Assembly: GCA_000934665.2 (NCBI GenBank)
Contig: KZ538769.1
Location: 62,001 to 126,000, forward strand
From: Catajapyx aquilonaris
Lineage: Eukaryota
DNA: 64,000 nt
Direction of reading: 5' to 3'
The notes under the pieces are model-generated. The model saw nothing but the letters and a program-made list of their open reading frames with translations. It was not told the origin of the DNA and did no database searches. Shown in pieces: positions 12,597-35,500 of the stretch; the first letter of the stretch is position 1; the number at the start of each line of letters is the position of its first letter. Position numbers and translations under genes: made by a program.

Positions 12597-12960
12597 CAGG
12601 GTTCAAAATTAGCAGTTGCCAGTCACATTTCTTCACTTAACATTATCAATTGGTGATCGAAGTGAGATATCTAGTCATCACTTTTGGTGACTACCTTTTT
12701 CCTCCCAAAATTGCATTTCTGTCAATAAAAAAATATTATTGCTAAGATTCTGGTCACATATTTTTTTGTTTCCGGCTGAAGCTGTTGGTGACTCTGTGGT
12801 GTTTGTGGCGCTCAGTTAACAATTAATATTTAAACTGTAACATACCGTAATGTTTAAAACAAGAATGGTGACAAGACATTCAGTTTTGGTGACCACACCT
12901 GGGTTTTAAGATGCTACTTGGTGACCTGCTTATATGTCTCACTGTCAGTTTCAAACACTG
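12597..12960. mobile_element. hAT-type MITE
   Basis: Ends CAGGGTTCAAAA / TTTCAAACACTG with an 8-bp target duplication GCTCCTAA (12589-12596 and 12961-12968). Confidence 0.8.
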
Positions 12961-13007
12961 GCTCCTAATAACATCTGACAAAAAAGTGAATGTGTAAGAA
13001 TATGACC

Positions 13008-13420
13008 TTTGAATAGTGACAACCTGGGCTTGAGAGTCGAAAATTTGCCATTTTTCCATATTTGAAATTGCCATGGAAGGCTCTAGGAACCAGCCAGAAC
13101 TCGTGTTTTAATTTTTATTTGCAACAATGGTAGATGAAGGCCAATTTTTTGAGTCACTTATTGTTCAAAGTGACATTAATTATATCAATATGGTTGACCA
13201 ATGTAACTGTATACCTTAAATGGGGTGTTGCAATCAGGAATTATGCACAGGGACATTTCAAATTTTATCAAAATTATCACTTCTGAACAAATGGCTACTC
13301 AAAAAATCAGTCATCTATCATTGTCATCAAAATAAAATTTCTTGAAGGTTCCTAGGACCATTTCAAATAAAACATTGCAAATAAAGAATCAATATCAAGA
13401 CCAGGTTTTCACTACTTAAA
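13008..13420. mobile_element. Degenerate TIR element (possibly Kolobok/TTAA-type MITE)
   Basis: TTTGAATAGTGACAACCTGGGCTTGA versus TCAAGACCAGGTTTTCACTACTTAAA inverted ends. Confidence 0.5.
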
Positions 13421-13540
13421 GAACAAAGCAGTTTCACTCTCATCAAATATTTTTAAAGAACAACATTTAATAAAAATTATCGCAGGCCATTGCAAAATCA
13501 ATCTTAGAAAACGTCCTTTGAAGCAACATTTTATGACTAA

Positions 13541-13751
13541 AGGCCGGTACCGACATGAAAGTTTTCTCGTGCAAGAGGAGCCAAATGTGCATGCCAGGAT
13601 CCGAGGAGAGATAAAAGTACAAAATTTTCAACTTTCATCCCCTTTCCGAGGGACCAGAGGGACCTGAGGCGACGTAGAGTCCGTCTCGGCGTAGAAGATT
13701 CCTCGCTCAAGAGGACTCTTGCCCGAGAAACTCTTACATCGATACCGACCT
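13541..13751. mobile_element. PIF/Harbinger (Tourist-like) MITE
   Basis: TIRs AGGCCGGTACCGACATGAAAGTTTTCTCGTGCAAGAG / CTCTTGCCCGAGAAACTCTTACATCGATACCGACCT, with TAA on both sides. Confidence 0.7.
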
Positions 13752-14234
13752 TAAGAGTGAGTCATCTACGTCACTGACAAGTTAATTTTCACCTGGAAGT
13801 GGAGCTCCAAACAAACAAACAAAAACCAATGAGGCAATGTGTGTGGGGGGTTTATTGCTGACCTTAATTGAAAGGCGACATGCACATACTGGACCATGTC
13901 TGAAATTCGTTCCGTAGTCCTGACCTAATCCTACAAGCAGTGCAGCTTGTTATGTACAATTACCTTGCAATATATTACTCTTCCTCAAATCAGCAAATCC
14001 TTAAATCTTCATCCAATTACTTTCCATCCAATAGGTGCAACCAAAGAACCACAAGTCAGGACGACGACACTTATAATTATTACTGTACAACCTAATCCTA
14101 CAAGCAGTACAGCTTGTTATGTACATTTAAGATCAGTCTCGCACACCCATTCACCCTGTTACTTTCAATCCCATTGGTACAACCTCAGGAACCATAAGCC
14201 AGGATGACTACACTAATTACAATCTAATACTACA

Positions 14235-15312
14235 GCAATTCAGCATGTTATGTACGAGGGCAAATCAAAAAGTAACTCACAGCTTTTTTATTTCCGAAGC
14301 TACACAACAGAAACTGAAACTGAGATATACATAAGAAAGGACAAGTCTTTCTCTAATTTTAGACATATTCATCATACACTTTGGTACACTTGTCCCACTG
14401 GAACACGACTTTTTCCATGACACGGCAGAAAAATACCGTCAGGCTGGCTGGGAAGCCAGGGGGGATGGCAATGGCATAAGAGAAAATAGATAGTTCAACC
14501 GGACGCCATCTTGAATAGAAATGAAAGTGAACTGTGTGGGTGGCCATGGGGAAAGAATTGTGGGAAAATTCGTAAATAAGTTTAAAGTGAGGCTTTGCTG
14601 GGACAGCAAGTTCATAGGGAGATAAAAATATTTATATTCAACAAATATTTAACAACCGGTTTCAAGATTCAGATTCAGCATGACTTAGATTTTGAAATTA
14701 GTTTCCTGAAATAACTACCACAATAACAATCAAAAAGTCTAAATTCTGCCAAGTACCGTACAAGCAACCACCCATGGCCCCACGCAAATACCATTTATAA
14801 AGTGATTTGATTTACTATATTTTTCCCAGGAGCGTCATGGCAGCTGTGTGGCAGCCAAAGGTTTTTTCAGCTTCAGGTTGATGGGGCTAGCGGCATTGGG
14901 TTAAGCGGTGTATTTCCTCTATGTCATTGGCTGACAGGCCTCTTTCACTTCCTCCATGTTGCTGAAATGCTGATCGGCCAGGTGCCACTTTATTGGTACA
15001 AAATTATGGTCTTAACCGTGGTCTACCATTATCTTGGACCAAAAAAGAAGCACTGGCCTGTCAAGACCTAGCGACATCGAGGAAGTGAACGAGGCCATCC
15101 GCCACTGACTTTTCAGCCAGCCTGACACTTTTTTCTGCAGTGTCATTGGAAAAAGTCGTGTCCCGGTGAGACAAGTGTACGAAAGTGTGTGGTGAATATG
15201 TCCAAAATTAGAGAAAGACTGGACCTTTCATATGTATATCTCAGTTTTAGTTTCCGTTGTGACACTTCAGAAATAAAAAAGTTGTGAATCATTTCTTTTT
15301 GATTCGCCCTCA
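14235..15312. mobile_element. Non-autonomous mariner-derived element with ~230-bp inverted arms
   Basis: TA-CGAGGGCAAATCAAAAAG ... CTTTTTGATTCGCCCTCA-TA. The arm encodes WDKCTKVYDEYV, similar to a mariner transposase C-terminus. It is inserted at the TA of the array-unit motif GTTATGTACA. Confidence 0.8.
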
Positions 15313-15936
15313 TACAATTCAAGTTTTTCAATCGTGCTAGCCTTTATAATTTATATCATCATCCAATCCAATTACTTTTAATGCAATGGGTACAACCAAA
15401 GGACCATAAGCCAGGATGACTACACTAATTAATACCTAATTCTACAAGCAGGTCAGCTTGTTATGTACAATTCTAGTTTTTCTCACTCGCAAAGATCTCC
15501 ATCTTCATCCAGTTACTTTCAATCCAATGAGTTCAACCAAAGGATCATAAGCCAGGATGACTACACTAGCTACAATCTAATCCTACAAGCAGTGCAGCTT
15601 GTTATGTACATTTTAACTTTCTCACTCTGACCAACCTTTAACTCTTCATCCAGTTGCCGTCAATCCAAAGGGTACAACCAGAGGACCATAAGACAGGATG
15701 ACTACACTAATTACCACTAATTACTGTACAAACTAATCCTACAAGCAGTGCAGCTTGTTATGTACATTAATCATGTTCTCAACTTGCCAATCTGAAAGTC
15801 ACCATCCAATTACTTTCAATCCAATAATTACTACTACGGGACCATAAGTCAGGACAACTAAAGTAATAATATAAAATCCTACAAGAAGTGTTGCTTGTTA
15901 CTGTGCACATTCAAAATTACTAAACCTTAAAAGAAC

Positions 15937-15988
15937 GATCCAACTATTCTCGATCCAACTATTCTCGATCCAACTATTCTCGATCCAA
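15937..15988. repeat. 15-bp tandem repeat (GATCCAACTATTCTC)x3
   Basis: Directly visible. It abuts a truncated Harbinger-like MITE ending ...CACATGTAAACACACCTTAA near 16175. Confidence 0.85.
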
Positions 15989-16422
15989 TGGATAGAATCA
16001 CAGGAGCGTAAAGATGCGTCGACATGGGAATGATTTGATTGCGCGATGTCATCGCCGAGCGATGAATCCAATTGTTTGGGGCAAAAATCGATTGTTACAG
16101 TGATTATTACTTGCGCCCCAAACAATTGAATACAATGCTCTGCGATCAAATCGCTCACATGTAAACACACCTTAAGTCAGGATGTGTGTGTGTGTTATTA
16201 CACTAGTTACATCATAATACTAAGAGAAGTGCAGGTTATCGTACACTGTATGTGCCATCTTGGTAATCTAACAAGCCTAAAATCTTGGAACACTTTCAAT
16301 CCAATGGAAAAGGTGATAGAAAATATTATCTTGCAGTGAGACTAAAAAGTCTCTTCCACGCCACTTTTTAACCAAATATTGCTGACTCACATTTAAGAAT
16401 TGTTTCAGATCCAACCTCACAA

Positions 16423-19400
16423 TTACTCACTGAGCACTTTTGTAGGGGTTGCAGTATTTCCTACAGTTTCCATCAGGTTTTCCAATCGATCCTCATGGAT
16501 TGAATCCCTAATGGCTTTGAAGAATTCTCGGTAATAATGCAGATTGTGACTGGAAAAAAAAAGAGAGAAAAAAAGAACTGTTCAAGCTGAAATTTAATTT
16601 GCAATGATGTGAACCAAGGACAGCTGCGAATCAAAATATGCTGAATTTTATAATTAGATGTTTTATGTCGTTTCCAAAGGCTGCCTGCACCGATTGTCGC
16701 AGAAGTGACGCAAAATAATTGCAAAAGGTTACTGCTGGTGCCATCACAACAAACACGTCCCAATTGAGGATTGCTTAATAGTTAGGTGTCCTTATCTATC
16801 ACTCACATCATGAGAAGAACCGAGCCCAACATCTCTTGAACATTGAGGAGGTGGTGGATGTAAGCTCTTGTGAATTTCCTGCATGTGTAGCAGCAACATA
16901 CCTCACTGAGAGGTCTGAAGTCGTCACTGAATCTGTGGAAGTTCCAATTGCAGTAAATCTGATAGAGAATTACCAACAGGTCCTACTTACTCTCGATCCT
17001 TTAATGCAATTCCAATGTCCCCATTCCTTGGCTCACCATTTCCATCACCTCCTCCAGTTTCAACTGGTTTTGGAATGTCTCTGAAACACCAACAACAGTC
17101 AGGAATGTTTCCTCCAGAAAATGGGACTTAATTTCCTTATGCTCCAAGTCAAAGTCTCAATGCACAGACATGTACATTTTCAGGCGGCACTAGATTTGGA
17201 AAAGTTCTCGCAGAGCACGTACAACAGCCTCAAATAAATCATGACAGGCAAAATAATAATAAGAATAAAGGACACAGGCAGCTCAAAGACAGCTACCAAC
17301 TTTGTAACCATAAGAGGCACTGTTTATGAGACGTTTCCTGCCAATTTAGGTGCGTCTTTTCTTGTGCTGGTTAACCACATTCAGCAGAAACACTAGGAAA
17401 ATGCTGTACTTCTGCCAGGACCACAAAATATTTCAGCCATAAGACTAGTTTCTGATCTATCCAGGGTTGACTACCTCAGTCATATAAATGCAATTCTGGT
17501 AGTCACTTACAAAAATTCCCTACATTCAAATTTTTGATGGTTGGAGGGTGTATACATTTTTTTTAAACGTATGAGGGATGTTCATAAAGATAAAGTTTCC
17601 TCCTTAGTGTCGACTTCTACAATTATGATGTCTGACAGGTTGTACATTGCTGGGGAAAATGTGTGACTCAGCAGGATTAGAATAAAGAGAAGGGCTAACA
17701 CACATGTGCAGTTTGAACGGTTTCTCTCTTTTCCTTCAACCCTAAGGAGGGATGAACACCCCTCGCATAAGTAAATATGAACAATTCATGAGCTGAAGAA
17801 ATGAAGGCTCATACTCACTTTTTGTTTACATCGAATTTGAATGTCAGTGCCCTTCCTGCTTCAGTCCATTGATAGGGAAAGGATGAGTCAAAAGTATCAA
17901 TGCCCAAATGCACCAGTTGCAACACAGTGAATGGGTCAAAGGCACCATGCATCACACGAGGCTTCTGCTCTGGTAAATGTTGCTACAAAAAAAGGTGACA
18001 ATAACTGTAAAAATAACTAATGGAAACTTCAAAACTAGCAACTGATAGTAATGCAGTCACCTGGCCAACCTACCAGAGTTGAACTGACCACATTGCACAA
18101 CAGCTCAGTGTCAAGCTTTTCAATGCTTCCGTTTGTGTGAAATCCATCAAGAACAAATCCAGACACAGGAAACTGAGCCGTTTCAGTTGCTGCCTTCTCC
18201 CTGGACTTGATGCAATATCCGCCTTCAATCACACCCAAAATTCCACTTTGGCTCAAAACCTGCAAATAAAATGCATATGTAGTACTCGCAAACCAAAATT
18301 TGCGGACATCAAATATGATGCAGACGGTACACAAAAACTGATCAGCAGGAAATTAACATAAATATCTTTTGCAATTTCAACTTTGATCAAGGGGTAATCA
18401 CTCATCAAGTCCGTTGTACAGTACTGTATAAGGCGCCAAGTCTGGCCAAGTCCTGGCTCAAGTCTGGCTTGTTACAAGTCTTTTGTACGCTCAACTTCCG
18501 AATGATTTACCCCTTGACTTTGATAGTCTGATACTTGATGAATTACATAAAACGCCCCAGTAATGACTTCCTATACAAGATTTTCTCATGCCATTTACGA
18601 TTTGAATCCTACCTTTGATTCCTGATGACTTTTAATGCACTCTGGCAGGTAAGTCAGAGTCCTGTCTATTGCTTTCCTTATTCTCTTTTTGCTGCTGTTC
18701 TGATCAGTGTCTCCGTCACATAGGGCTTGATACAAACAAGGGCGGTAGGATTCCACCACTTTCATGTACTTTGCAACATTCAGTTGCTTCCTTCCAGATC
18801 GAGACCACACTGAAATTCCCCCACTGTCATTATAGCCAGGAGGTGTGGCCTGCGCAGGATCTTGAACGCTGCAGTAAACTGGATGTTCCTGAAATCCAAG
18901 AACATTTGCAATATTCAAACATTACTCCCACACTTGGATCAGCAACAGCTTTTCGCAACACGTGGTGTACTTTGGCCTGTTCCATACGAAACGTATTACT
19001 GAATCTGCTCATTCAGTTCATCTCACCTGCATTCCTACAAATCCAGCGATGCCTTGCCCTAACTTGTCCACGGCAGGAAAAAACTCCAAGGTGTTGGCGA
19101 TCGGGACCTGGACCATGGGCAAGTCCAGTTTGGCCATCATCAGAACTTCATGGGTCAGGTGGGGCACAGCACCTCCCTGAAAGAGTATCTCATAGCATCA
19201 ACAACACAATAGCATACAAATTCCACAAAAACCAATGGTTTCAAATAGGCCACTCTCTTTTTAAAAAAATAAAATAAAATAATAAATGAAAACCCACTCA
19301 CCTTTCAAAACCGTAAAAAAAAAAAAATCACGCAGAAATCGTGCAATAAGCGCCAATTGGGGCAGACCAAGCCCCATGGAGCTCTTTAATCAGAGCATAT

Positions 19401-19897
19401 GAGTAGACAAAGAGGGCTGCCTTTCTTTTCTTCTGGTGGGAGACGCCCAGTTTGACCCCACCAACCCCAGCTTGGGGTGCAGCACATTCCCAGGCGGCTG
19501 TACCCCCATCTCCCTTTTTCGCCACCGAGCAAAACCGATCAGGCCATATGGGTTCATCTCTTCACATCTGGGTCTACTAGTAAACATGCCACCCGAGAAG
19601 CCTAGCCTCCTCCTCTAATGCCAAACCTGCTGCGCCATACACACACTAACCCTAAAATCGAACTATGACTCCCCCTGATTGTTGTGTATGAGTCGACGAG
19701 TTCGGATTCCTTCCTTCCTCCCCTGGGATCGCAAGCTAGGTACACGAATCGTACACTTGCAGTGATGAGGCGAGGCTTATTACCTTTGTGTGCACGAGGA
19801 GGGCGGGCGTCTCCACCTGGCCTGATTCGAGTCCTTCCCAGGTCCCCAGGCGCGCACCGCCTCGGCCAGACTCCCGGCTGCGAAGGACCCACCTCAT
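16423..19897 (-). CDS. QTRT2: Queuine tRNA-ribosyltransferase accessory subunit 2, ~410 aa. Exons 19897-19784, 19176-19027, 18888-18613, 18259-18074, 17982-17819, 17080-16991, 16932-16807, 16549-16423
   Basis: GARLG..ETPALLVHTKGGAVPHLT, YCSVQDP, QALCDGDT..KKRIRKAIDRT, LPEQKPR, GIDTFDSSFPY, and Zn-site CCCYTCRKFTRAYIHHLL..HNLHYY. All introns are GT-AG with consistent phases. Confidence 0.92.
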
Positions 19898-20068
19898 GGC
19901 CCCACCCAGCCAGCAACAGGAGGAGGGCGTAACAACAACAACCATGCAACAACAACAAGGGCCAAACACACCACGTGCTACGAACCGACCGCCATGTTGG
20001 CCGACCGGCGACTGGCCTGACATCTGGCGGAGATGAGATGCGGCCGGATTGTCTTGGTTCATTATGTT

Positions 20069-20311
20069 GCCGTTTACATGTGACAAGCTCCCTTGATACA
20101 GCCAGTCGGAGCTCGAGATCTTGCAAGACGCATGCGCAGTATGATAATACACTGGATGGTATAACCTGGTTTTGATTGGTCCAAACTGGTGCCGTTTACA
20201 TGAAACAAGATGCGAAATGACAAGCCAATCGTAACTCGTCCCTTGCTATATGCATGCGCACTATTGCAGTGTGGTGGATGGTGTAAACGCATTCTGATTG
20301 GTCCAATCTGG
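20069..20311. promoter_or_regulatory. Duplicated ~120-bp module upstream of QTRT2, each copy with GCATGCGCA (NRF1/Ewg-like) and a CCAAT box
   Basis: Two direct copies (20069-20189 and 20191-20311) of GCCGTTTACATG..GCATGCGCA..GGATGGT..TGATTGGTCCAA.CTGG. Confidence 0.45.
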
Positions 20312-20577
20312 AGCTGTATCATGTGCGGAAAGTTCAAATTGTTATTGTATCGTTATTATATTAAAATGGTATAAATTTATATATTTATTCAAAAATGCAA
20401 TGTAAAATTCAACTATTTATTCCAAAATGTTAAATTCAAATGTTTATTCAAAAATTCAATTCAAAATTCAAAATAATATTTCTTCCAAAATTTAAAAATA
20501 GGGGATATTGAAGTAGCGATCATTTTAGGCATTGTTCAAAGAATGATTAAGTATATAGTCAATACATTGAAAAGTAT

Positions 20578-20931
20578 GGGGAGGTGTGGTGGCCGAGATG
20601 GTAACGTCTCTCGGCTTGCTGTGTGAAAGGCCCCAGGTTCGATCCCCGCCTGGAGAACTTTCCTTTCACCTGCGTCAGGAGGGTCTGCGGTCTCTGACCT
20701 GCACCAAGGAGGTATCTGGCCACCTAACCTCCTGGGGAACTGCACATGACTCCTTTTCAGACATTGCACTTGCACCCATGTTCCCTCCCCGAAAATCCCT
20801 ATCCTTACCCAATTTCCTTGATTCCTTGCACCGAAGTTGTGAGAAACTTGAACAAAAATAAATAAAGGTTCATGCGATATACCCCCGGTTGGGAGTGAAA
20901 GCATTACCCACAGTTATTATTATATTAATAT
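20578..20931 (+). mobile_element. tRNA-derived SINE, full length
   Basis: Pol III A box TGGCCGAGATGG, B box GGTTCGATCC and a TTA-rich tail. 15-bp TSD TACATTGAAAAGTAT at 20563-20577 and 20932-20946. Confidence 0.85.
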
Positions 20932-20974
20932 TACATTGAAAAGTATTATATAATAATTAATTAAAATCAAAATA

Positions 20975-21046
20975 TGGTGGGGCCCAAAAAGACCCCACGG
21001 CACGGTTGCCGTAATACTCGTAGGCACGGCACGGTTCCAGGGTTAA
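20975..21046. mobile_element. Possible solitary piggyBac-like terminus
   Basis: Subterminal repeat CACGGCACGGTT x2 ending in GGG-TTAA. No matching opposite end was found. Confidence 0.35.
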
Positions 21047-21630
21047 TTCCCCGAATATGGTTGTAATTTAACAATTTAATATGGAACACACTGGCCTGCA
21101 GATATCATGCTTGCGTCTCGAAGAACCTCCCCTCGACGACGAGGGCACTGTCACACCCGGGCGACCGCCGGTTTGGCCGTAATGAATATTCAGAGGCAGC
21201 CCTGCACGCGTGGATCCCACTCATCCCCCTGAAGCTACAGGCTCGACTCACGCTTCGAGACGCAAGTGGCGGCCCCTGTGGGTTGGATCGCCATGTTGGG
21301 TAACCACTGACTGGCCTGCCTTATGGCTTAGGCGGTGTAGGGGCATTCAAGCAATCACACCCAACAAGGTCTAGAAATTAATGAAGTCCTTTCTTTGTAT
21401 TTCAGAAAAAGGATTCTCAAGCTGCACTTGCACAGTACACCAAAAATTGACAACAGGCATTCATAAAATAATGTCAAACACTTTCTGGAAAAGGTCATCA
21501 AGTTGGTTGGAAGAGTAAAGTTCCACAACAAATTTTCACTTTGATATGAACTCAGAAAATGTTCGATGGTCACACTATCGTTGCACTTTTGTACTGTATG
21601 AAGTTTCACCATCATTTTACATTCCTCATT

Positions 21631-24600
21631 TCAAAGCTTGTTATTCGTGTTCTTGTAATCCTGGTTCCTTTTGTTTGCCAACCGATGGTCAAACCTTTTT
21701 CTCTTGCTCACTGATGTGGGATGCATATTGAGATTGACATATTGCTGAGACCTACGTTTGATGCCACGCCCTCCACTTGAGTCGCAACCAAAATTTTCCA
21801 ATGCAGAAACTTTTTCAGCAGTTGTTTTCATGGCGTTGTATGTGTCTGTAAATGTCGTGAATGCTGGAGAAAACAAATGAGGTTCCTTGCGAAGGCTGCT
21901 GAGTACATCTGCGGAAACTTTATGCCAAGCAGCTGTCAATTTGTCAACCAAAGGCACGTGTTCTTGAAGGCCACTACAACTAGGTGACAGATCATCACTT
22001 GAGGAGGGTGAACAAGGGGTTGGGGAAGGCATCTCCACATCACACTCTCCAGGCAAAGGACCCTGCAATGAATTGGGACAGGTTGCTGATGCTTCCTTGT
22101 CACCCAATGCTACGAAATGGAGAGACAACTTCTCAGCAGCTGATATGGGGAAATGCATTGAATTGAGCTTTGCATATCTGCAAACGGCAAACTGGTGTTT
22201 GCAAGCCCCTCCTTTCAGTCCTATGGGACAGCTACAGCTCCAGATTGACACATCCACAGAATATGTTCTTGCTTCCTTGTTTTGTACAGTGTACATCTCT
22301 GTTCCAGGGATTTGAGCTACTTTCAACCTGGTTGCCTTTTCCCCAAGTTTGATGAAGCCCTGCTTGCGACACTGGCCTGGTTTTGCTGGTAGCAAGCGTA
22401 ATATCTTTCGTCGGTAGTACATGTCCACCTCATCAGTCAGGAAGACGAACAATCCAACAGTGTTATATGCCCTGCTTCTGAGCAGTATCTTGTCTTGAAG
22501 GACACCATGGGCTGCCTTGTCAAGATTGCTCATGTTGTGCCCATGCATTTGGATCTCTGCTCTGTGGCATAGAGCCCACTCTTCACGCCTGTCATATAAC
22601 TCACAGAATCGGTTCAACAAGGTCATGTACTTTGCAACAGTAGGATCTGTGCAGATTTCCTGGAAATTCTCATCTAATTCCTCTTCAGTTCTGGAGTGCA
22701 CTAGTCTCTTCACAGCAGCAAAGACTTTCACCCTATCCAGTGCTGTGACTTCAGATTCTGCATCAAATATGAAGTGCCACTCAGTTTGCAGGATGTGTAA
22801 AATGCAAGGAACTAAGACTGATGAGGGAAAGAAACTGCTCAGACTCTTCCTTTCATCTCTTGAGTCATCAGTGATGAAGACAGCCGGACCCTCCCAACCC
22901 CTTCCAAAGAAGGCTCTCTCTGGCAGCACACTCTTGAGGAGCTGTAAAGCTTTGCTTATGAGGAGCTCACACCCTGAGCTAGTAATTAAAGCTCCAAGTG
23001 GCAAGCCTCCAACACTTGAATGGGCCATCAAAACAAACACTTGGCACTGACACCTGTCCATGTTCAATACAGTCACAAGTTCTGCAGCAGTGGGCAATTC
23101 TTGGTGCACCCGCCGCATAAGTGGTGAACACACAGAAATTGCAAAAAAATCATCGCCTGATTCCATTGCTGCACAATTACACCCACACCTTTCATTGTAT
23201 GCAGCAATTCTTTCTCTCAACTTCTGTTTCATCCTTTCTCCTTGATCATTACCATTCTGCTTAGAAATCAGGTTGGACTTGAGGTGATACACCCACTTTA
23301 GATCTGGGCAGAGAGAGCGATCAGATAATACTCTTAAGTAGTTGTGTCCATGCTCTAGTTGCAGGTCCCTCTTGTGCTCTCGAAGGGCAGACATTGGCTT
23401 ATGAGTCACGAGAAGTTCACAGAATTTTTCTCGAACTTCAGGAGCAGGATCACGACGGGCGAGTGCCTGAGCTGACTGTATGAAGTGGTTGTGGGTGTGT
23501 AAAATTACCACTTTGCATGGGTATTCCTTAAATTCTGGGACATTTCTCCTGAAATAGATAAAAGGGAACTACAGTACTGTCATTCATATCTAGTGGCTGA
23601 TTAAAAAGAAGAAAAAATAACTTTTTGCACATATCATCAAACGCCTCAGTGTCTGAAGAGAGGTTTTGATTGACTCAGTGGCATATGTCATGACATAATT
23701 CCCTAGAATTACAACACCACTCCTTTGACCAAAACTGGTAAGGATGAAGGTCGCATGCATATAACAAGCCCAGGCTGGATTGGTGCAGAGCCTGCATGCG
23801 ACTTTTGTCCTGACTGGTTTGTGCAGCACACAATTTCTGAGACTGGCCTTTGGTGCAATAACAAGTGACTCTTTTTAAACCAGCTCCCTCTCTTTCATCA
23901 GTGAAATTCCACATTTTGGGGGGAGCAGCAAAAATGGTCACAATAGAAGCGCATTGGCATGCCAAAGTATAAAGGCCTCATTTTTAATGCACTCACAAGC
24001 ATCCTGAAGGAAGTAGAGTTCAGAACAACTCAATTTTTTGGAAAACAAAGACAAAACAAGAATGCACATACTAGAAATGTGAAAATCGTACATGTAAGGC
24101 ACCAAAGTAGGACCCCCAATTGATTTTTTCCTGTGTAAAGTTCTAAATTGTTAAAGTTACTATTAATTTCTCAATGTCAAAAAAAAGTCATCAATTACTT
24201 AAGAATCGGCTACATCAGTATCCACAAAACAAATTACTGTAAAGGGCATTTTTTAATTTAGTAAAAACTTGCAATAATGATGCTTTAGAAAAAGTTCTCC
24301 TAATGTCAGATATCTTCTCCTCATAATTTGGACCTCCAAATATAAGTAATTGTTCAGGAGAAAATGAAAACAAACCTAGGTTATGCAAGAGGGATGGCCC
24401 AGCATTGGTGTACCTTCCACCTCTGAGGTCCCTAGCTCAATCATTATGTTGCTACGTCTTTATAATATTTGTAAAATGTGACAGATATTTCTGATCAATT
24501 TTTGTAATCTTATTAGCACGAGCAGAAGTCATAGTAGCACCTTACTGTTTCAAGGATGGTTTGCCAATAGTAAGCCCTAGTTGTGCTTGGCAGTTGGTAT

Positions 24601-27600
24601 GTTTTGCTGAAGCACCCCTTCCAGCTTTAGGCCGTGTATTGTGATGGCAGCAATAGCATATCTGGAATGGAAGTAAAGTTTGATGAAATCAGCAAAATTA
24701 AGTAGTGCATGGAATGAATAATATTACGTTAAAAATTTGTGCCCTTAATATTATGAAAGAAGCTCATGAAATTAACCTGGAAGACTTGGACACAATGGTC
24801 CACCTTTGAACATTTGAATTTTTATACGAGCTCCTGTTATAGGCCGCACAACCAATATTTTCTGGCATGGTGGAGGTAGCATTTGGAATATAATATGAGT
24901 GACTAACATGCCAGGGTGTTCGTCGGTCACTTCTTGATAACCAAAGGTGGGCATTAGCGTCGATAATCAGCTAATAGCTGAACTAACTTTTCTGCAGCTG
25001 ATTAGCTGTTTTCGCTAACTTTTCAGGCCGCTAGCTGACTGATTAGCTCCCACTAAATTTAGTGCCACACAGCAGCTAAATAAATTCAGCTAACAAAATT
25101 TATTCGTCTTCCTGTCTCTCTGTCTGTTACATTTTAAAGTTGCATTGTTTCCACTCCAAACAGGGATTAAAATAGACCAGTTTATGGGTGGGGGACTTCA
25201 AGGCCCTATCCCTACGGTGGAATCCCACTGGTGATGCACCAAAATTGAAAGTCTTTCTTTCAATGTCCAAAAATGTGGGAGACTTCAAGGCCCTATGGCC
25301 AACCATCACTCCCAAATGATGGAGTAAAAATGTAAGAGTATCAGGATGTGACCAATAAGGCAATAAACCTTTTTGCTCTTTGGATTTGTTTATTACTTTT
25401 TGTATGGAACAGTAAGTAACTAAATAAGCTGTATGTGTAACAATGTTCTCTAAGCTTTATCAGCTTAGGTCTGTTTTTTAAGGGTCATAGAGCCAAAAGA
25501 GGCCGACAATGCCTGGTTAGGGCTCACGAGGTCTCCACACTTTGTGCCAAATCATGACGTCACATCCGCCCGCGAAATTCAAACCCTGCCGTATCGCTAC
25601 CGTACGCGGTGTGTTGCTAGGTGTTGCCATGTTGACATCCCCCACATGTTCACCAAATAGGCGTTGCCATACCGTTGTCCCTGCTGGTTTATATGACGGT
25701 ATGGCAATGTCTGGAAACGTCCCTGCGAGTTTATATGGTTCCATTGTTTGGTGAACATGTGGGGGATGTCAACATGGCAACGCACCGCGTACGGTAGCGA
25801 TACGGTAGTGTTTGAATTTCCCGGCGGATGTGATGTCATGATTTGGCCCAAACTTTGGAGGCCTCGTGAGCCCTAACCAGGCATTGTAGAGAAATAGAAC
25901 CTTCACTTCCATATACTGGTTTTTCACAAGGATTCTCGCTACCTGAAGCTTGTGCGCCATTTACCGACCACCCTGTACATAGAGAAGATTCTACTAATAA
26001 TGCTTAGTATACAGACCTTGTAGACAATTCTGGGAGTGTTTTTCTGAAAAGTACGCCTAACACGCCATGTGGTGCAAGACTTTCTTTGAAATTCTGCAAC
26101 CCATGCCTTCACATCTTCTTGAGAAAACACATTCACTCGGACAATTGCCTCAAACCGTTCCTCCTGAGAGTAATCCTCGACAATTCTAAAATTCTTAACC
26201 ACATGACGAAACTTGCTAGGAAGCACCTTCTGCAAATAAAAGTACATATTGATAATATGATGTTGAAGAAAACTTAATTCTGTCAATGTAATGATTGGGA
26301 TAATTTAACCTCTAATTGCTCCGGGATACTGGTACTAGAAACACTAGTCATCGCATTTTCAGGATCCAGGGATGTGGAATGGTGATCATGTGCTTGGTGG
26401 ATCTTCAAGACCTGGCCTTTGAAGTTGAAGCCATCTAATGCCAATCCTAGTTTTGCTTCATCTACTGAACGGAACTAGTGAGAAGAAATGCAGGTGTTAG
26501 TGTATGAGGAGTATTTAAATAACCTGAAGAAAAAAATCAGTTACCTCCACAAATGCGAAATTCTTGTCTGGGGTCATTTCACAAGCAAGCACTGGATTTC
26601 CAGCTGTTTGAGCCACACTTGAAAGGAGGACCACCTGGTTAAAAAATATCTTCACCTCTTCCTGAAAAGTGCAAAAAAAAAAGTATATGCAAGTTACATA
26701 ATTATGTATGGCAGCCTACTTTTACCTCAGTGACTCCAGCAGGAATGTTTTGAATATGCAGAAGTCTGCCCTCCCCTGCACTAGTGGATCCCACTGCTGA
26801 ACCAGTGTTGGCTGGAACCTGGCCAGTGGCTGAAGCAGAAAAAAAGTGTTCAGATCCTGGTTTGTAAACCCCCGAGTGACCCAGTGTTAGTAACTGGGTC
26901 GTAACTCCACCCCAGGTTCACTCTGTGTCTCACCTTGCGTAGCTGTACCACACTGCACCTTGCCACTCACATGCTGTCGAACCTACACAAGAATGGAAAC
27001 CAGTTTAATGTTGAATAATTCATTACAGCAAGAAAACCCAGTCAGAGTGTAATCATAACTACTGATCCAACAAAGGAGGAAGGTGCCCAGGTGGAATAGG
27101 TAATTCAAAATGCCACTTTCTAATGGGGATGGATAGTAAAAAGGGTGGTGGAAACAGCCCTGACTGGTATTAATTGGAGATTGATTTGGGATAATTTCAC
27201 CTCTAATTCCTGTGGGACACCGGCCACTTGGTTTTGAGATGTCCTAGGCAAGGCAATTTTAATAGCCTTCACCACACCATGGGAATTATTAGGCAGCATC
27301 TTCTGCAAGTAAAAGTACACATTCCTAATATCATGTTCATATCATTTTCATTCTGTCAGTGAACTGATAGGGATGTCTTTACCTCCAATTTCTCTGGCAT
27401 ACTGGTACGAGGGACATTGGCCTTTGGCATTTTAGCCATCCCAGGCCTGGTAAGGCGATGAAATGGTCGAAAGATCTTCAAGTCATGATGCTTGAAAAGT
27501 ATACCATCTAATGCCAGTGCTTGCCTTGTTTCATCTATTGAACGCAGCTAATGAGAAGAAATTCAGGTGTTGCTTTGTGACTGGTATAACTCTTTGTCAC

Positions 27601-29663
27601 ATTCGAATAACCTGAGAAAAACAGTTACCTCCAAAAATGCCACATTCTTCTCTAGGTTGCATAATTTGCAAGCGATCACTGGATTTCCAGGCCCATCAGC
27701 CAGATGAAAAAATTTCATCTGCTGGTTAAAGAACTTCACAAACTCCTCCTGAAAAGCGTTTTGTTTTGTTTTTATCAGTGTACAGAAGTTACATCCATAT
27801 GCCATAGCCTACATTTACCTCAGTCACTCCAGCAGGGATGTTTCCAACATGCAGAAATCTGGCCTGGTTGGGAAGAATGTGTCCCACAACAGGTACCACT
27901 ACTGTACCAGTCTTGGCTGGGACCTGGCCAGTGGCTGAAGCAGAACAAGAGTGTTCAGATCCTGGTTCGTAAACCCCAGAGTGACCCAGTGTTAGTAACT
28001 GGATCATAACCCCAACCCAGGTTCACTCTGTGTCTCACCTTGCGTAGTTGTACCACCTTGCACCTTGCCACTCCCAAGTTGTCGAACCTACACAAGAATG
28101 GAAACCATTTCAATATTGAATCATTCACTATATTGTAAGAAAGCCCAGCAAGAAGAGTGTAATAATAACTATACTATTCCAACAAAGGAAGAAGGTGGAA
28201 TTGATAAATCAAAAGGGCCATTTTCAAACAAGAATAGATAGTAAAAATAGTGTTGGAAGCAGCCCCTGATCCTAGTTATGACGGGGATCATATTACCTCC
28301 AATTGCTCTCCGATACAGGTACGAGAGACATTGGCCTGTGGGTTTTCAGATGTCCTGGGCCTGGGAACTTTAATAATCCTGACAACATCAACGGATTTGT
28401 TAGTGGGCACCTTCTGCAAATAAAAGTACTCATAGTTAATATTGTCAACATAATTTTTCCTCTGTCAGTGTTACCTCCAATTGCTCTGGCATACTGGTAC
28501 TAGGAAAGCTGGCCTTTAAGTTTTCCGAGTTCCTGGGCATGGGAATCTCAAGAGTTTTTACCACATCTTGGGATTTGTTAGGTAGCACCTTCTGCAAATA
28601 AAAGTATACAACTTGCTAAAATGCACTGTACTCACGATTATCTGTTGCAGATTATTATGCATCACCAAAAAATATTAGAAATATAGGTCCAAAAAAATGA
28701 CAATACGTCTCACAAACAAAGACGTACTACAGACACATTATGTACCGGACTACCGGTAGAGTAGTACATTTAAAACCTCTGAATGGCTCCTTTTTACTGC
28801 ATCTAGGACCTTTTCCAAATATCCGCTGACACCTGTGCAGTCATTAGCACTGATAATAATCGGGAGCAGTGCCTTTTGTTATATTAATTTAATTCAGCCA
28901 GAGCATACGGATTAGGATCAGATTACGTAGGCATACTGACACTAGGAACCCCGGCCTTTTGGTTTTCAGGCGTCCTGGTTATGATAATTTTAAAAGTCTT
29001 CCCCACATCTTGGGATTTGTTAGGTGGCACCTTCTGCAAATAAAAGTACAATTTGCAAATATTATAGTAATCTAATTTTTACTCTGTCACATGCTGATTG
29101 GGATCACATTACCTCCAATTGCTCTGGGATTTTGGTACTAGGCCCGGGATGGTGATAATGTGCTTCACGTATTGTCAGCGTCTTTCCCTTGAAGTTGATG
29201 CCATCCAATGCCATTGCTGGCTTTGTTTCATCTCTTGACCGGACCTAATCAGAAGAAATGCAGGTGTTGACGTATGGAGAGTCACATTCAAATAACCAGA
29301 GGAAAACATTGTTACCTCCAACAACGCTGAAATCTTGTTTGGGTTGATGTTGCAAACAAGCACTGGATTTCCAGATGCTTCAGTTAGGCCAGAAAGGGGC
29401 ATCTTCTGGTTGAAAAACTCCACCATCTCATCCTGAAAAGTATTTTAAACAGATAAGCACATTATGCAAGTAACATGCCAGCCTACTTTTACCTCAGTGA
29501 CTTCAGCAGGAATGTTTTGAACGTACAGAAGCGTGGTACGCCTCGGAACGGTGCATCCCACTGTTTGGCCTGTGTTGGCCGGGCCCTGGCTAGTGGCTGC
29601 AGATGAAATAAACGACCAGTTCCCAGTGTACTACAAACCCCACATCCGCATCTCACCTTGCAT
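21631..29663 (-). CDS. Chimeric protein (~1300 aa): 3x U2AF65-like RRM1 plus linker repeats fused to a Mutator-type transposase-derived WRKY-like/MULE/SWIM region. Exons 29663-29657, 29596-29493, 29432-29316, 29244-29113, 29033-28941 (uncertain), 28591-28475, 28413-28297, 28087-28039, 27934-27819, 27748-27629, 27547-27383, 27302-27201, 26982-26934, 26829-26726, 26661-26545, 26474-26310, 26229-26017, 24661-24546, 23548-21631
   Basis: All introns are GT-AG, phases are consistent and there are no internal stops. The RRM copies (e.g. ATGQVPA..VPVVG..QARFLHVGNIPAGVTE|EEFVKFFNQQM..GNPVIAC..LEKNVAFLE|LRSIDETRQALALDGI) match U2AF65/U2af50. The C-terminal part has CCHHN..KHTNC..HTHNH, GGLPLG, FITDD, CILH and SWIM CSCPIGLKGGACKH. 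Confidence 0.78.
25506..25887. mobile_element. Long-arm foldback MITE in an intron of the chimeric gene
   Basis: ACAATGCCTGGTTAGGGCTCACGAGG... / ...CCTCGTGAGCCCTAACCAGGCATTGT, with inverted similarity over roughly 150 bp. Confidence 0.8.
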
Positions 29664-29930
29664 TACTTTTCAGCTCCAACCTACAGCCTTGGCTCCAACT
29701 GTCAGCATGTCAGCTGAGGCACGTGTCCGCCATGTTGGTTACCAAACCACCGATAGGCCTGCCATCTGGCGGCGTTCCCAAGCGATGCGACACTCTCCGT
29801 CAGCTGTTTACACCACCGCTTGTTTTGTCCACAAGTTGTCATCTTTCATTGACCTCTGCACCTTTTCCAGTCACAACATCATCCCCTCTGAGCAGTGTCC
29901 AAGACTCCAGTCACCATTAGTTACTCCAAG
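29664..29930. promoter_or_regulatory. Putative bidirectional promoter between the chimeric gene and NELF-E
   Basis: The divergent start codons are separated by 267 bp. The interval contains CGCCATGTTGG (YY1-like, 29728) and TGCCATCTGGCGG (CTCF-like, 29760). Confidence 0.6.
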
Positions 29931-31252
29931 ATGGTCTACCTCCACTTCCCAACCAACCTGACGGAGGAGGAGCACATGCTGCAGGCCAAGTACCAGAAGT
30001 TACGCAGAAAGGTAACCGTCAGACTCATCGCATTGACACGCCTGCAAGTCTTGTAAAACCCTGCTTTTGGGAGCAGAAAAAGGCGCTCCAGTCCTTGAAG
30101 GCGCCCAGCAAGTCTGAGATGGAGAAGCGGACGCTGAGCAGCAAGCGTCCGGCTGAGGCCAAGGATGCCAAGGAGGTGGCCAAGAAGCTGCTCAAGTCGG
30201 GTGCCATCAGTGCCATCCAGAAGCCAGGGGAGAAGGGGGAGAAGACCACCTTCAAGAGGTCCAAAGGACTCGAGAGGAAGCTGAGCTCAACCACCGACAG
30301 GCTGTCCGATAGGGTCAGCGGATACCAGCCATATTCGGCCACACATCCGGATGAGGAGGAACCGGAGAGGAAGCCAAAGATGAAGGTAAGAGGCAAATCG
30401 CAGTCTGCGTCACCATCTACGTCGCTGTTCTCTTTCAGAATCTGTATGACAGCTTCGTGTCTGCCAGGGAACGGGAGGAACGAGGCCAGAATGAATCGCG
30501 TGACGGCCGCCCTGAGAAACCACGCCAAGGCAACACCGTGTATGTGTCAGGCCACAGCGTAACAGAAGAGATCTTGAGAAATGCATTCCAGGCATTTGGA
30601 GCCATCGCCAACATCTCCATGGAGATTGAGAAGCACTGTGGGTTTGTCACCTTCAACAAGATGGAGTCTGCCGAGAAGGCCATCAGCGGGATGAATGGTG
30701 TTGTCGTATCCGGAATCCAGCTCAAAGTCAGCCTGGCCAGGAGGCAGCCTACCATCGATCCTATCAACCAGGCGTCATCTTCGGCAGCTTGGTCAACTAT
30801 TGGTAAGCATACACAGACCTACCCGCAGCTGGAAAAGACATTCTCACTGTTGTATAACTGGACATTCTTGTGGGTAAAGGGTGTGTTACTGTTTGCAAGA
30901 TGATTTATGTTAACAAGCATTAAGCGGCGGTTACATGTGAGCGATTTTATTGGCAATGTTGCAGCAACATACATTGCTGAGCGAAAGAAACAATATATTT
31001 TTGCCCCAAACAATCAGTCTCACGGCTGCAACATTGCTGATCAAATCGCTTGCATGTAAACGTGGCTTTACACCTACCACTGCCTTGCAGACCGTTTCAA
31101 ATTATTATTGATGCTTCTTTCTTTTAAACTTTTTAATACTGTAATAACACATGGAATCTTTTCCAAATTTTTTTCCAGCTGCTAACCAGTCGCAGAAGGG
31201 AAGCCATAAGGACAAACGAGATATGGTCACATATGACTTGGACCTATTTTGA
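29931..31252 (+). CDS. NELF-E: Negative elongation factor E, ~275 aa. Exons 29931-30011, 30077-30385, 30439-30802, 31179-31252
   Basis: MVYLHFPTNLTEEEHMLQAKYQKLRRKKKAL, AKKLLKSGAISAI, FKRSKGLERKL, NLYDSFV, RRM GNTVYV..CGFVTF..LKVSLARRQP, WSTIAANQSQKGSHKDKRDMVTYD. AATAAA at 31272. Confidence 0.95.
30921..31070. mobile_element. Harbinger-like MITE in NELF-E intron 3
   Basis: TAAGCGGCGGTTACATGTGAGCGATTT / AAATCGCTTGCATGTAAACGTGGCTTTA inverted ends. Related to the fragment near 16070-16175. Confidence 0.6.
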
Positions 31253-31337
31253 ATCAATGTTAAAGTGAAAAAATAAACTTACTTAAAATATCTGTGTTTT
31301 CTGTGTTAAGAACAATAAAACTGAGAACTTCTAAACT

Positions 31338-32525
31338 CTAGACCTTGGCCTTCTTGGCTTCTGGAGTGTTTGATTCCTTTGTGGGGGTGCGTTTCAGCCA
31401 GTTGGCCATGAAGCGGCTGCTGGGTGTCTCGGCCTTCTTGGGCGTCTCCCTGTCAGATGGGAAAGTGTCAGTTTCGAATGTAATCCACATAATTCATGTC
31501 CTAAATTGACTAAACAATTTGTGCTCAACATACCCCAACTTAATAGGATGGTTGCAAGTGACATCCTTGTTGCGGGAGTTGTTCACCAGAGTAGAGACTG
31601 GATGCCACTTCAGCTCCTCTGCTGGCTTCAGCAGCTGAAAGGCATCCTTTGACTTTACACAGTCAGAATCAAGCCAGTCCTGCAGGAAAAGAGGCACATT
31701 TTAGTTCGGAGAGACATGCAACATTCAAGTGCACTTGTTATAACGAGTACAATTTGCATACTGCAACAATTTCAGGTGAGTCCAAGATGGCAGGCATCCT
31801 TTGGTGCAGCCAGCCCAATGTGTCATTGGATTCCATGGTGATGATGCTGTAACTGTGCACCGCATTCCCATCTTCAGGGGTCCAAACGTTGTACAATGCC
31901 GCCATATGCATTAGCCTGGGTCCATCGCCAGTGTTCCAAGTGTCAGGATCCTCCACCTTCACACCTTCTTCCTGCGGCATGTAGAGAAAGTACGGCTGCT
32001 TGGTCTTGCCTTTTGTCTGCCACTCGTAGAATCCATCACACAGCACAATGCAACGACGTCCACGGTTGAACGACGGGCTGTACAGAGAGGACTTGAGCAT
32101 GCCTTCCATCCGGCAGTTGTTGGTCGACAGTCCGTGGGATTTAGGGTCAGATCCCTGCAACATTCATTCAAAGGTGAACAAAAATCCTCGCTTCAGTGTG
32201 CCTTGGACGCACCTTGAACCAAGCGGGAATCATTCCCCAGAGCATGGGCTGAATGACCCTTTCCTCCTGGTGGTTGAACAGTATGGGAGTGTGGCTCGCA
32301 GGGGACACATTGTGCGAAGGGTAATACTGCCGTCCGTCCGAAGACTCCTGCCACCTTGGCTCCACTTGCTCCCCCCTGTCCCGAGGCTTGTAGCGACAGG
32401 CCCTGCAAATTGCTCCAGGATCAAGGGTACTGCAGAACAAGAGGCAATCATAATTATCAGAGTAATTATTATTCTAAATGCTGCGTATGTGATGAACGTT
32501 ATTACCATGCGGTTCTCCCGCACAT
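31338..32525 (-). CDS. HMCES: Abasic site processing protein HMCES (SRAP domain), ~295 aa. Exons 32525-32506, 32429-32213, 32154-31762, 31679-31534, 31449-31338
   Basis: N-terminal MCGRTAC (catalytic Cys2), PSHNVSP, MLWGMIPAW, RRCIVLCDGFYEW, KQPYF, YSIIT, LHQRMPAIL, WHPVS..VNNSR and a C-terminal PIP-like SSRFMANWL. Confidence 0.95.
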
Positions 32526-35500
32526 GCTTCCACCGCAGCACTTCACTGTCTCTCTTCAGGAGTTGTGTCTGGAAGGCAATGCTGTTAATTAGCGGACACA
32601 ATTAGTGCGGGTGATCTAATGAATTCTAGTGATCCAAGTCGAAGAAGAACCTTTCGAACAAAGTTCCAGAACAAATTTTGGCCGAACAGCGCTGCCACCT
32701 GGCCGGGTTGAGTCACACTACAGCTTTTAACAGTGTCCCCCAGATGGCGGTAATGCCGGGTACATCAGTGACATCTGACGGATTCAATTGAAAGCTCCGG
32801 CATTGAATTATTTAACCGCGGATTTCAAAAGTGAATGTAATCGTTCTTCAATCATTACTGTACTTGAGTACTTCTACAGCCGCAACTACTCGTTCATGCT
32901 CTATTTACACTTCGGGTAAACCACTTGTTACAGCGAAGACATTTGCGCACACCCTGTGAGTAACGAGATAATTGGTATTATCATTAGCAGCTGAAACCGT
33001 TCTTCTCATACCCGTTTCCAGCCCGTTTCATACCCATTTTACATCCGTTGCCATGTAACCAAACCTGGATAAACAAACAAACAAACTTTGCCTTTTATTC
33101 CCACAGATTATTGTTGCTGTTGTTGTCATGAGAGACAGTATTGGCATTGTCATCATTCACTTTCAGCGTGCAAAAATGTACTGCTGGTATATCAATGTTC
33201 GCATTCGTGTTTGAGCCTTTGCGACTCATTCAGTTTGTTGCCTTCTGAATATAGACGTCGTAATGGCCTGTTCCTGCCCTCGTAAAAATTTGACGTAGAA
33301 CGTCGGGAAATGCAGGCAGCTGCCGGAGAAGTGACATATATTGTGCGGCAGGAATTTAAAGGGCGGTTTTTTTCCCCCCTGATTTTTAACAGAGCTATTG
33401 GTCCATTTTGCACATTGTTATTTTAGAGGCCGCAAAAGTATGATAAATTATGTATTTTTTTCTGGCTGCTGAGTTGGTACTGAAGAAGAGTCATTTCCTG
33501 CCGCCTCTGTGAACGGAAGTCCTGGTGCATCCTCACTTGCTCATGCCTATTACAGTTACAGTAAATTAGAGCACTGAGCATTCTCCCGGGAAAATCCTGC
33601 AGGAAATATTCCGTGCCATCAGAGCAAATTTGCTTCAAACACCATATGTCGATGTAAACGTGTTATGACAACATACGCAGACGTTTATAAAAATGTTTTG
33701 ACACAACCAGCTGCAGTGCGTCAGGATAAGTCAGGAAACACACTTCACCTACTCCACACACAGGTATCATCCTTGATCCCTGCCTCATTTCTTGGTCCAC
33801 AGATCATCAAGGTCTGGCCAGAAAAAAATGGCTCGGCAGTCAGCAGGAAAAACGTCGCCATTATAAGAAAAGGTAAGTTTTCTCTATATTCCTCAGCAGG
33901 AAGTCGTCTCCGTTCATCACGCCTGAATAACATTAACGAAATGCCACTAACTGATTACCGGATCTCACGATTTCATTCTCTGCCGGAATTCCTGCAGATC
34001 CCATAAAACACAAGGCCTCGCATATAATTCCGGCCAAAATTCCATCACACCAAAGTACGTGCTATGCGTATTGCCAAAATGGGATCGATCAGCTCTATAA
34101 AGGTGAGCCAAAATTTCGCCCAAATTATTTTTAGCGCCACATTTCGCCCGAATTTTGGCACAAGAATGGATACAAAAAGGTGACAAAAAAAGGCCGCCTT
34201 CCCATGGGACACGAGTAAAAAAGGTGGCAGTTGTCGTGTTTCACCGATAGCTTCCGGTCCCCATATAAGTTCTTCGCACTTCCATCACTTTTCTTGTGCC
34301 CCAACTTCTTGGATTCATTCCAGACACCATTTTCAGTCGGGAAAAAGATCCCCTCCTGAGACATGGTTCCAGCTTTGTTTGCTCACATGGCCACCAGCTT
34401 TTGGGAGAAGTCAAGGGGTCAACTGACAGGTTCATTAGATCTTGGGATAGAAATAGACCATATGCGAATAGGCGCATATTATAACCCACAAATGCCTGAA
34501 TTATTTGTTGTTAAATTTTAATGGAGGGATAACATCTCCATATTTATGGGAAAGTTTGTCCGGTCTGCCTAACCCACTTTCAGACTACTGCGAGTGCTGA
34601 AACTTGGCACACAGATGGCAAACCGGTCCTTGATTGAGGGAAAAATCCAAAAACTGTACTTCCAAAATTTTAGATTTTTGGTACTGTAGTGCACAAGTGG
34701 CTTATATAATAGGACATCCCGGGTTAATACATTATTTTCAGTGTACTTTGTATGTACTGTTTATCTGAATATGCCGGAAGTTTGCACTTGACATTTGAGC
34801 CTTCACAGGCTGCAGGTAATAATATTTTGGCCACCCCTGAACTTAGCAGCTGCTCTGCACATTGTACATCTGCCGTTTTCTTTTGTGTGTGGTACGTGCC
34901 TCCGAATTTATATCGGGCCTTCCAACCCATGCATTACTATGTTAATTGGCAGAGTGTACATGGTGATTAAGACAGAGTGCTTTGGCTTCTTTCCCTGAGT
35001 GTCCCGGAATATTCAGGTGAAATTTTCTGAGCTCGTTTCCGGTGTGCCGCTCCTTGATCTCTCCTGCTTGACTTCTCCCTGGAACGAGGCCATTGGCCCT
35101 ACCCGTGTGTGTATACACACATGAATTGCATCGCATTTTGGAAATCCCTGTTGCATTCTATATATGTGCAGTGTGTGTCCCCTGCCTCCAACCCTCCCCA
35201 AGAGTGCAAAAGCCGTTCATCCACAGCACAAGGGTAGGGGTGTCCCCCCTTTTGCCAAGGGCTCAGTCTTCAGCCAGACTTTTGGTGGGGCACACACGCT
35301 CTCTGGGAGTGCCCTGGACGAGTTCATCACCTCCCATCGGGTGAGTTTGTTCACCTCCGAATAATATGTCCATTTTGAATATTCATGTCCCCTACCATTG
35401 TTTTACGCACGTGACCATTTGCTCAAATTGTGGGAGTCGTAATCGACATACCCGGATACACCATCATTTCCTGTTCAATTGCACGTCAACAACGTAGTGC

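Follow-up and report, generated by a model that had tools for sequence, protein, structure and literature searches.

The stretch of DNA analysed here, called the window below, comprises 64,000 nucleotides of Catajapyx aquilonaris (contig KZ538769.1, positions 62,001 to 126,000), and all coordinates count from its first letter. Its minus strand carries, from 29663 to 21631, a gene in which three modules resembling the first RNA recognition motif (RRM1) of the splicing factor U2AF65 are joined in one open frame to a Mutator-like (MULE/SWIM) transposase. We consider it likely that this is an arthropod host-transposase fusion gene which encodes a nuclear nucleic-acid-binding protein and no longer a transposase. 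The initial annotation of this DNA had proposed an intact chimeric gene, and the open frame, the spliced contigs of a public run (X1) and the homologies to U2AF65 and MULE proteins bear this out.

Exon chain, reading frame and transcripts

Nineteen exons were rebuilt from the window sequence on the minus strand from 29663 to 21631, and all 18 introns are GT..AG. The spliced frame has 3921 nt, representing 1306 codons without internal stop and a terminal TGA at 21633-21631. The initial annotation had expected 18-19 minus-strand GT-AG exons with a stop-free frame of about 1300 amino acids (aa), and the rebuilt chain agrees with it in this as well as in both ends, the ranges of the three modules and the boundary at 26310/26229. 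The chain starts with exon 1a (29663-29657), composed of the ATG (29663-29661) and 4 nt, followed by RRM module 1 (29596-29113) with exons 1b (29596-29493), 1c (29432-29316) and 1d (29244-29113). Three linker exons, m1 (29033-28941), m2 (28591-28475) and m3 (28413-28297), separate it from RRM module 2 (28087-27383), which contains exons 2a (28087-28039), 2b (27934-27819), 2c (27748-27629) and 2d (27547-27383). A single linker exon, m4 (27302-27201; 102 nt, phase 0), precedes RRM module 3 (26982-26310) with exons 3a (26982-26934), 3b (26829-26726), 3c (26661-26545) and 3d (26474-26310). The transposase-derived part has its N-terminus in exon T1 (26229-26017), followed by exon Tm (24661-24546; 116 nt), which carries Cys634 and Cys653 of an N-terminal zinc motif. 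The last exon, T2 (23548-21631), carries the H-x-H of this motif, the MULE RNase H-like core, the SWIM finger, a C-terminal tail and the stop.

All c, d and m exons are in phase 0 at both ends and each a+b pair is a multiple of three, so that skipping of any cassette keeps the frame. Exonic length differences between the modules are also multiples of three (12, 3 and 33 nt), and intron lengths differ freely. With 1306 open codons across 19 exons and these in-frame length differences, chance is excluded as the source of the frame. The frame is open through all 558 codons upstream of the transposase part, which itself has 748 codons. As T1 and Tm contain no Met codon, the zinc domain is translatable only from the upstream exons. 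The 5' untranslated region reaches at least about 29693, with an in-frame TGA upstream of the ATG, and the 3' untranslated region reaches at least 21397. Upstream ATGs at 29708, 29733 and 29765 on the minus strand open short open reading frames (ORFs), which would be upstream ORFs if the transcript starts further upstream.

Transcript sequences were taken from one public run (X1, kind not on record), which carries a third of the sampled words and whose contigs were aligned to 20500-31500. The contigs include records of 875, 619 and 843 nt which match the gene with no other letters, as do records 1-3 over exon T2. Because they carry sense GT-AG joints both in this gene and in the NELFE-like gene on the opposite strand, the run is read as cDNA-derived and from the same organism. 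Joints in X1 confirm ten of the 18 introns: 1a-1b, 1b-1c, 1c-1d, 1d-m1, m1-m2, 2a-2b, 3b-3c, 3c-3d, T1-Tm and Tm-T2. The 1a-1b joint (29596/29657) has 37 letters on its shorter side, and record 3 directly joins 26017 to 24661 and 24546 to 23548. Exon Tm is known from X1 contigs only; T1 reaches a 645-aa ORF through it, and the acceptor of T2 lies before 23548. The donor of m1 at 28941, also taken from X1 contigs only, avoids an in-frame TAA further on. The contigs include the spliced series from the U2AF-derived exon 1d to m1 and m2, the 5' halves of which are transposase-derived. No variant letters were observed over the exons at ≥90% likeness. X1 gives no cover at 27106-27472 and almost none at 27473-27839, which is uninformative either way. 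An alternative zinc-finger exon at about 23700-23870 with an acceptor at 23568 was rejected, as the contigs show the exon 24661-24546 and the acceptor before 23548. In the same Tm-T2 intron, 23731-23823 shares an inverted 99-nt repeat of 73% identity with 11829-11927; this repeat is dispersed, and its translation resembled a zinc-finger exon.

U2AF65-type modules and transposase-derived part

PDB sequences were searched exon by exon with E≤1, except for exon 3d (E≤10). The 'a' exons lie outside this comparison, since the PDB constructs begin later. All matches were U2AF65 for exons 1c (13/13; best E 3.2e-7) and 1d (13/13; 2.4e-5) of module 1, for exons 2b (8/8; 4.6e-4), 2c (13/13; 8.8e-6) and 2d (13/13; 6.1e-8) of module 2 and for exon 3c (13/13; 3.1e-6) of module 3. 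Exon 3d matched U2AF65 in 13 of 15 cases (best E 3.7e-5). The assignment of each module to U2AF65 RRM1, made at the outset, is thus upheld by seven exons which match U2AF65 chains and almost nothing else in PDB. Exons b, c and d align to consecutive residues of the same human U2AF65 chains. Each module therefore represents RRM1 together with its N-terminal extension and the linker that follows it, ending before RRM2. The match of exon 2d extends into the inter-RRM linker. The Pfam RRM_1 match is absent on single exon-containing ORFs because the domain is split over three exons.

The 1306-aa model contains no RS domain or RS-rich region, ULM, RRM2 or UHM. None of the 38 minus-strand ORFs of ≥55 aa in 8000-21600, which were searched for remnants of the RRM2 or UHM of U2AF, showed an RRM match. 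Judged from its sequence, the gene product is not a U2AF large subunit, and the earlier view that it is no replacement of U2AF65 was correct.

The C-terminal 748 codons represent a complete Mutator-like transposase. A word-indexed search with the 645-aa ORF retrieved 9 relatives (best 44% identity), and an exhaustive HMMER search retrieved 1925 at E≤0.001 (best E 2.8e-100, 33% identity). The named relatives are 'uncharacterized' proteins of a nemertean, snails, a frog, thrips and a sea urchin, including six Pomacea loci in one cluster. By these sequence matches, their distribution is the patchy multi-copy pattern of a transposon family. Among 36 aligned members, Pfam MULE was matched by 31, ZSWIM1-3_RNaseH-like by 18 and SWIM by 12. 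Exon T1 matches the relatives by tblastn, and the spliced T1, Tm and start of T2 align unbroken with the N-terminal ends of P0011 (9.9e-26) and some 40 further relatives, which confirms the RNA-derived exon Tm. The zinc ligands C634 (64/68 relatives), C653 (66/66), H687 (88/88) and H689 (87/88) are kept in the window protein, as are the SWIM residues C1106, C1108, C1117 and H1119, which are conserved in 111-113 of 112-113 relatives. Of the WRKY-like CCHH domain, MULE core and SWIM finger named in the initial annotation, the C..C..H.H motif, MULE and SWIM were seen. No FAR1 or WRKY Pfam match was found in the 36 members, hence 'WRKY-like' remains a resemblance.

The AlphaFold model of the 645-aa part (pLDDT 77.2) gave five PDB matches at E≤0.001, all of them ISCth4 transposase, followed by Hermes and retroviral integrase cores. 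The matches to ISCth4 (6xgx, 6xg8, 6xgw) have 10-16% identity and low TM-scores (0.20-0.40), the best with E 1.8e-6 and probability 1.00. The predicted fold is RNase H-like, of the IS256/Mutator type; ISCth4 is a member of the IS256 family, the bacterial kin of Mutator.

The presumed catalytic columns were read from an alignment of the window protein with the 116 of 157 relatives which have ≥480 aa, the shorter ones being left out. The first conserved acidic column (D in 106/116 relatives) falls in a 3-residue deletion of the window protein, the D of the second (98/116) is kept, and the E column (E in 96/115) has K. In the model the three columns lie, in this order, on strand 1, directly behind strand 4 and in the helix region which comes next, an arrangement that fits a DDE triad. 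Another conserved Asp, seven columns past the first one (96/116 relatives), is kept. With two of three presumed catalytic positions lost, the protein is, on this alignment, most likely no longer a transposase.

Order of events, genomic context and competing explanations

The m exons are all chimeric (repeat families D1, D4, D5 and D6). Their 5' parts, including the end of the preceding intron, repeat the 5' part of T1, and their 3' parts, including the start of the following intron, repeat the 3' end of a d exon. Alignment to the N-termini of the relatives, with L561 and P562 conserved, shows that the 5' part of T1 comes from the transposase. As the m exons are chimeric and half of their sequence comes from this part, the fusion of U2AF and transposase predates the tandem duplications.

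Between modules, exons are 68-79% and introns 65-92% identical. Although the exons of the repeats have diverged by 21-32% and their introns by 8-35%, no stop, frameshift or lost splice site is found in the 19 exons. At 52-55% protein identity, the three modules agree with the early remark that the copies had diverged and still kept frame and splice sites. Frame survival was simulated by placing 0.08 random substitutions per site, a rate set at half the smallest inter-module intron divergence. The 748-codon transposase part remained open in 0/1000 runs (P<0.001) and the 558-codon N-terminal part in 9/1000. This near-zero survival suggests that selection has kept the frame open, and to this extent the proposed purifying selection is supported.

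The c-d introns of the three modules (within 26310-29596) are more alike (82-85%) than the adjoining exons (68-77%), and synonymous divergence (dS 0.47-0.57) exceeds intron divergence between modules. Possible reasons are that splicing constrains such short introns, that gene conversion has occurred or that the exons have diversified.

In the history that we propose, RRM1 and flanking exons of a large U2AF subunit would have been joined to the transposase at the DNA level, introns included, and the U2AF exons would have spliced to an acceptor about 20 codons into the Mutator-like transposase ORF. In-frame tandem duplications after the fusion produced the three RRM modules split by short chimeric linker exons, and the full-length transposase part was kept with its C..C..H.H zinc motif and SWIM finger. 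In such a protein the zinc domains inherited from the transposase would bind DNA, probably at sequences similar to the ends of the ancestral element, and the three domains of RRM1 type would either bind RNA, possibly pyrimidine-rich, or mediate contacts with proteins. Both binding activities, and whatever role the protein has in the cell, are inferred. A bolder version, which we think unlikely, makes it a DNA-to-RNA bridge: the zinc domains would sit at ancestral-transposon DNA sites, the RRMs, one to three of them depending on the splice isoform, would catch nascent RNA rich in pyrimidines, and the protein could then influence splicing or silencing of transcripts at these sites.

The gene is situated between a QTRT1-like gene, with queuine tRNA-ribosyltransferase exons downstream on the same strand (16806-18921, minus), and a NELFE-like gene (29931-31450, plus strand), with which it is head to head. 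Three introns of the latter (30009/30075, 30383/30437 and 30801/31178) are confirmed by a 2263-nt X1 contig. A NELFE exon gave 78 matches, and the named ones are all arthropods, with the best at 73% (an orthopteran) and crustaceans at 71%, so that this neighbour points to an arthropod host. The interval 29664-29930, about 270 bp between the ATG of the chimeric gene and the NELFE-like ATG (about 29931), is a presumed shared promoter region. Other neighbouring genes are represented by a COG6 C-terminus (3-719, plus strand) and an SRAP/HMCES exon (31738-32163, minus strand). A nuclear-receptor ligand-binding exon and an exon with a long poly-Ala run are found at 47593-48027 and 55569-56456 on the minus strand. 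No credible pair of terminal inverted repeats was found in 17000-33000; the sole inverted pair that spans the gene is 30 nt long with 73% identity, and one of its arms falls within NELFE. The T1-Tm intron holds a palindromic element of about 380 nt (25506-25887) resembling a miniature inverted-repeat transposable element, with arms of 65, 53 and 35 nt that are 89-100% complementary. The summed X1 depth over it is about 15, apparently from other copies. Just 3' of the gene, 20500-20866 shows a summed X1 depth of 381 and many variant letters, which points to a dispersed, transcribed repeat.

Several observations weigh against a single domesticated fusion gene. The locus was found in one run only, of unrecorded kind, and most X1 joints are flagged 'between: not known', the T1-Tm-T2 series being direct in record 3. 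The transcript check that had been suggested was answered in part: ten introns, including those of the upstream exons, are joined, and the other eight, including 3d-T1 (26310/26229), are not among the X1 joints listed. The placed part of record 3 ends 2 nt upstream of exon T1 and is followed by 6 letters without a placement. The window protein itself scores 18.8 bits with Pfam MULE (PF10551), where the cut-off is 27.6, and 17.7 bits with SWIM, where it is 19.6; as the relatives match PF10551, MULE membership rests on transitive homology. That the three acidic columns are the catalytic triad is presumed from the MULE signature. In the RRMs, RNA-contact positions differ from U2AF65 in every module. 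Only module 1 retains Tyr152 of the ribonucleoprotein motif RNP2, which His replaces in modules 2 and 3, and the Gly154 position is Gln in modules 1 and 3. Module 1 has lost the RNP1 aromatics, module 2 has some of them, and module 3 retains them and has the RNP1 octamer nearest to U2AF65. Roles of Y152 and G154 of U2AF65 in RNA contact are described in PMC7408900. On sequence grounds these eroded positions argue for caution about U2AF-like pyrimidine-tract binding. The ratio of nonsynonymous to synonymous divergence between modules (dN/dS 0.64-0.69) suggests weak constraint on individual RRM residues, so that the claim of purifying selection holds less well for them than for the frame. No ortholog was found in the protein collections searched, but the lack of a close relative of the host there limits the weight of this negative.

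The gaps in the transcript evidence would suit two transcription units, a U2AF-RRM1 repeat gene and a transposase-derived gene with an untranslated leader, with the continuous frame as a relic of duplication. The unlisted 3d-T1 joint speaks for such a division, and the contigs add up to a greater depth on T2 than on the exons of the RRM modules, though contig depth cannot rank gene parts. We regard it as improbable, since T1 and Tm have no Met and yet keep the conserved zinc ligands, all 558 upstream codons are open, and the m exons show transposase-derived coding sequence to be spliced in frame into the RRM transcript. Nor does record 3 continue into the intron upstream of T1. Very improbable, in our judgement, is a transcribed functionless relic, that is, a young chimera drifting to pseudogenisation. 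The dN/dS between modules, the erosion of RNP residues in all of them and the failure to find an ortholog in the collections searched are what such a relic would show. Frame and splice sites intact in 19 exons after the divergence of the repeats given above are not, and neither is the simulated survival of the transposase part (P<0.001), obtained at a conservative rate.

Least probable of the explanations considered is that the gene is cargo of a mobile or recently mobile Mutator-like element which captured U2AF exons by Pack-MULE-like transduplication, the present locus being one of several copies. MULEs are known to capture host gene fragments with introns (compare the abstract of PMC9168764), and relatives of the transposase are multi-copy in some genomes, as in the Pomacea cluster. 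However, flanking inverted repeats were not found in 17000-33000, the protein lacks two presumed catalytic positions, the exons have no variant letters in X1 at ≥90% likeness, and the RRM part occurs in 0/157 relatives. The gene is also embedded between conserved host genes of single-copy type, head to head with NELFE. The fusion gene fixed at its host locus is thus the reading that we retain.

Relation to known fusion genes and domesticated transposases

Host-transposase fusions are a recognised route to new regulators, and the documented cases pair DNA-binding with chromatin or transcription domains, mostly in vertebrates. The present case combines an RNA-binding partner from a core splicing factor with a whole Mutator-type transposase, in an arthropod host. 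The locus also records its own history, with capture, splicing through an acceptor inside the transposase ORF and repeated in-frame duplication with surviving junction exons, and so provides a clear example of exon shuffling. RNA binding by the RRMs, if it occurs, would make the protein a physical link between specific DNA sites and RNA. Should the bridge version be true, the gene would be a first case of an RRM fused to a transposase, with reuse outside the spliceosome of a core domain for recognising the 3' splice site, and the frame-neutral cassettes would let isoforms with fewer RRMs stay in frame.

The architecture had been called undescribed, and no such relative or publication was found, preprint supplements not being covered. 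The RRM-bearing N-terminal 558 residues found no counterpart among the 157 relatives, the single match having E 0.42. In a Pfam scan of 15 relatives, 12 have long N-terminal extensions and none has an RRM. No longer proteins (1130-3225 aa) related to the transposase part were found, which is weak evidence. The nearest named clusters in the ESM Atlas are the MULE, SWIM and ZSWIM1-3 families, without RRM. Literature searches returned no RRM-transposase fusion, and the main text of a preprint on F-box/TE-domain proteins has 0 mentions of RRM, MULE or SWIM. In the main text of Cosby et al. (bioRxiv 10.1101/2020.05.07.082677), RRM, MULE and Mutator have 0 occurrences.

U2AF65 (U2AF2) is reproduced by exons b-c-d in its RRM1, N-terminal extension and linker up to RRM2. 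Unlike U2AF65, the present protein has no RS domain, U2AF35-binding/ULM region, RRM2 or UHM, three RRM1 copies replace the RRM1-RRM2 pair, and the RNP motifs are altered. The large U2AF subunit of insects is U2af50. ISCth4 is a bacterial and catalytically active enzyme, unlike the present protein with its lost presumed catalytic positions. Pack-MULEs, which are Mutator-like elements of plants with captured gene fragments, likewise associate a MULE with an intron-bearing host gene fragment. They are non-autonomous, bounded by long inverted repeats and without transposase. The search for inverted repeats found none at the present locus, whose fragment is continuous in frame with the transposase.

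Domesticated MULE transposases, namely FHY3/FAR1/FRS and MUSTANG of plants, the animal 'FHY3-like' genes (PMC10027918) and vertebrate ZSWIM1/ZSWIM3 (PF21056), share with the present gene the MULE core and the SWIM finger, and they have an N-terminal zinc DNA-binding domain which the C..C..H.H motif of the window protein resembles. Their transposition function is likewise presumed lost. In contrast to the present gene, they have no fused host domain. The kinship with ZSWIM1/ZSWIM3 is distant, as PF21056 matches 18 of 36 relatives and not the window protein at E≤0.01. By sequence, the gene looks like a domestication independent of the FHY3/FAR1/ZSWIM type.

A close parallel in gene construction is found in the vertebrate host-transposase fusion genes SETMAR, GTF2IRD2 and KRABINER (bioRxiv 10.1101/2020.05.07.082677). 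According to that preprint, those genes likewise splice host exons in frame to an acceptor which lies at, or close to, the beginning of the transposase ORF, retain the DNA-binding part of the transposase and have become fixed at their host loci. The partner in those genes is KRAB, SET or a similar domain, whereas here it is an RNA recognition motif. The present gene also differs in that a MULE-type transposase is kept in full length, the host part was triplicated after the fusion and the host is an arthropod. The gene is thus a host-transposase fusion, a known kind of gene, with a new architecture of three U2AF RRM1 and a full-length, probably inactive MULE/SWIM transposase.

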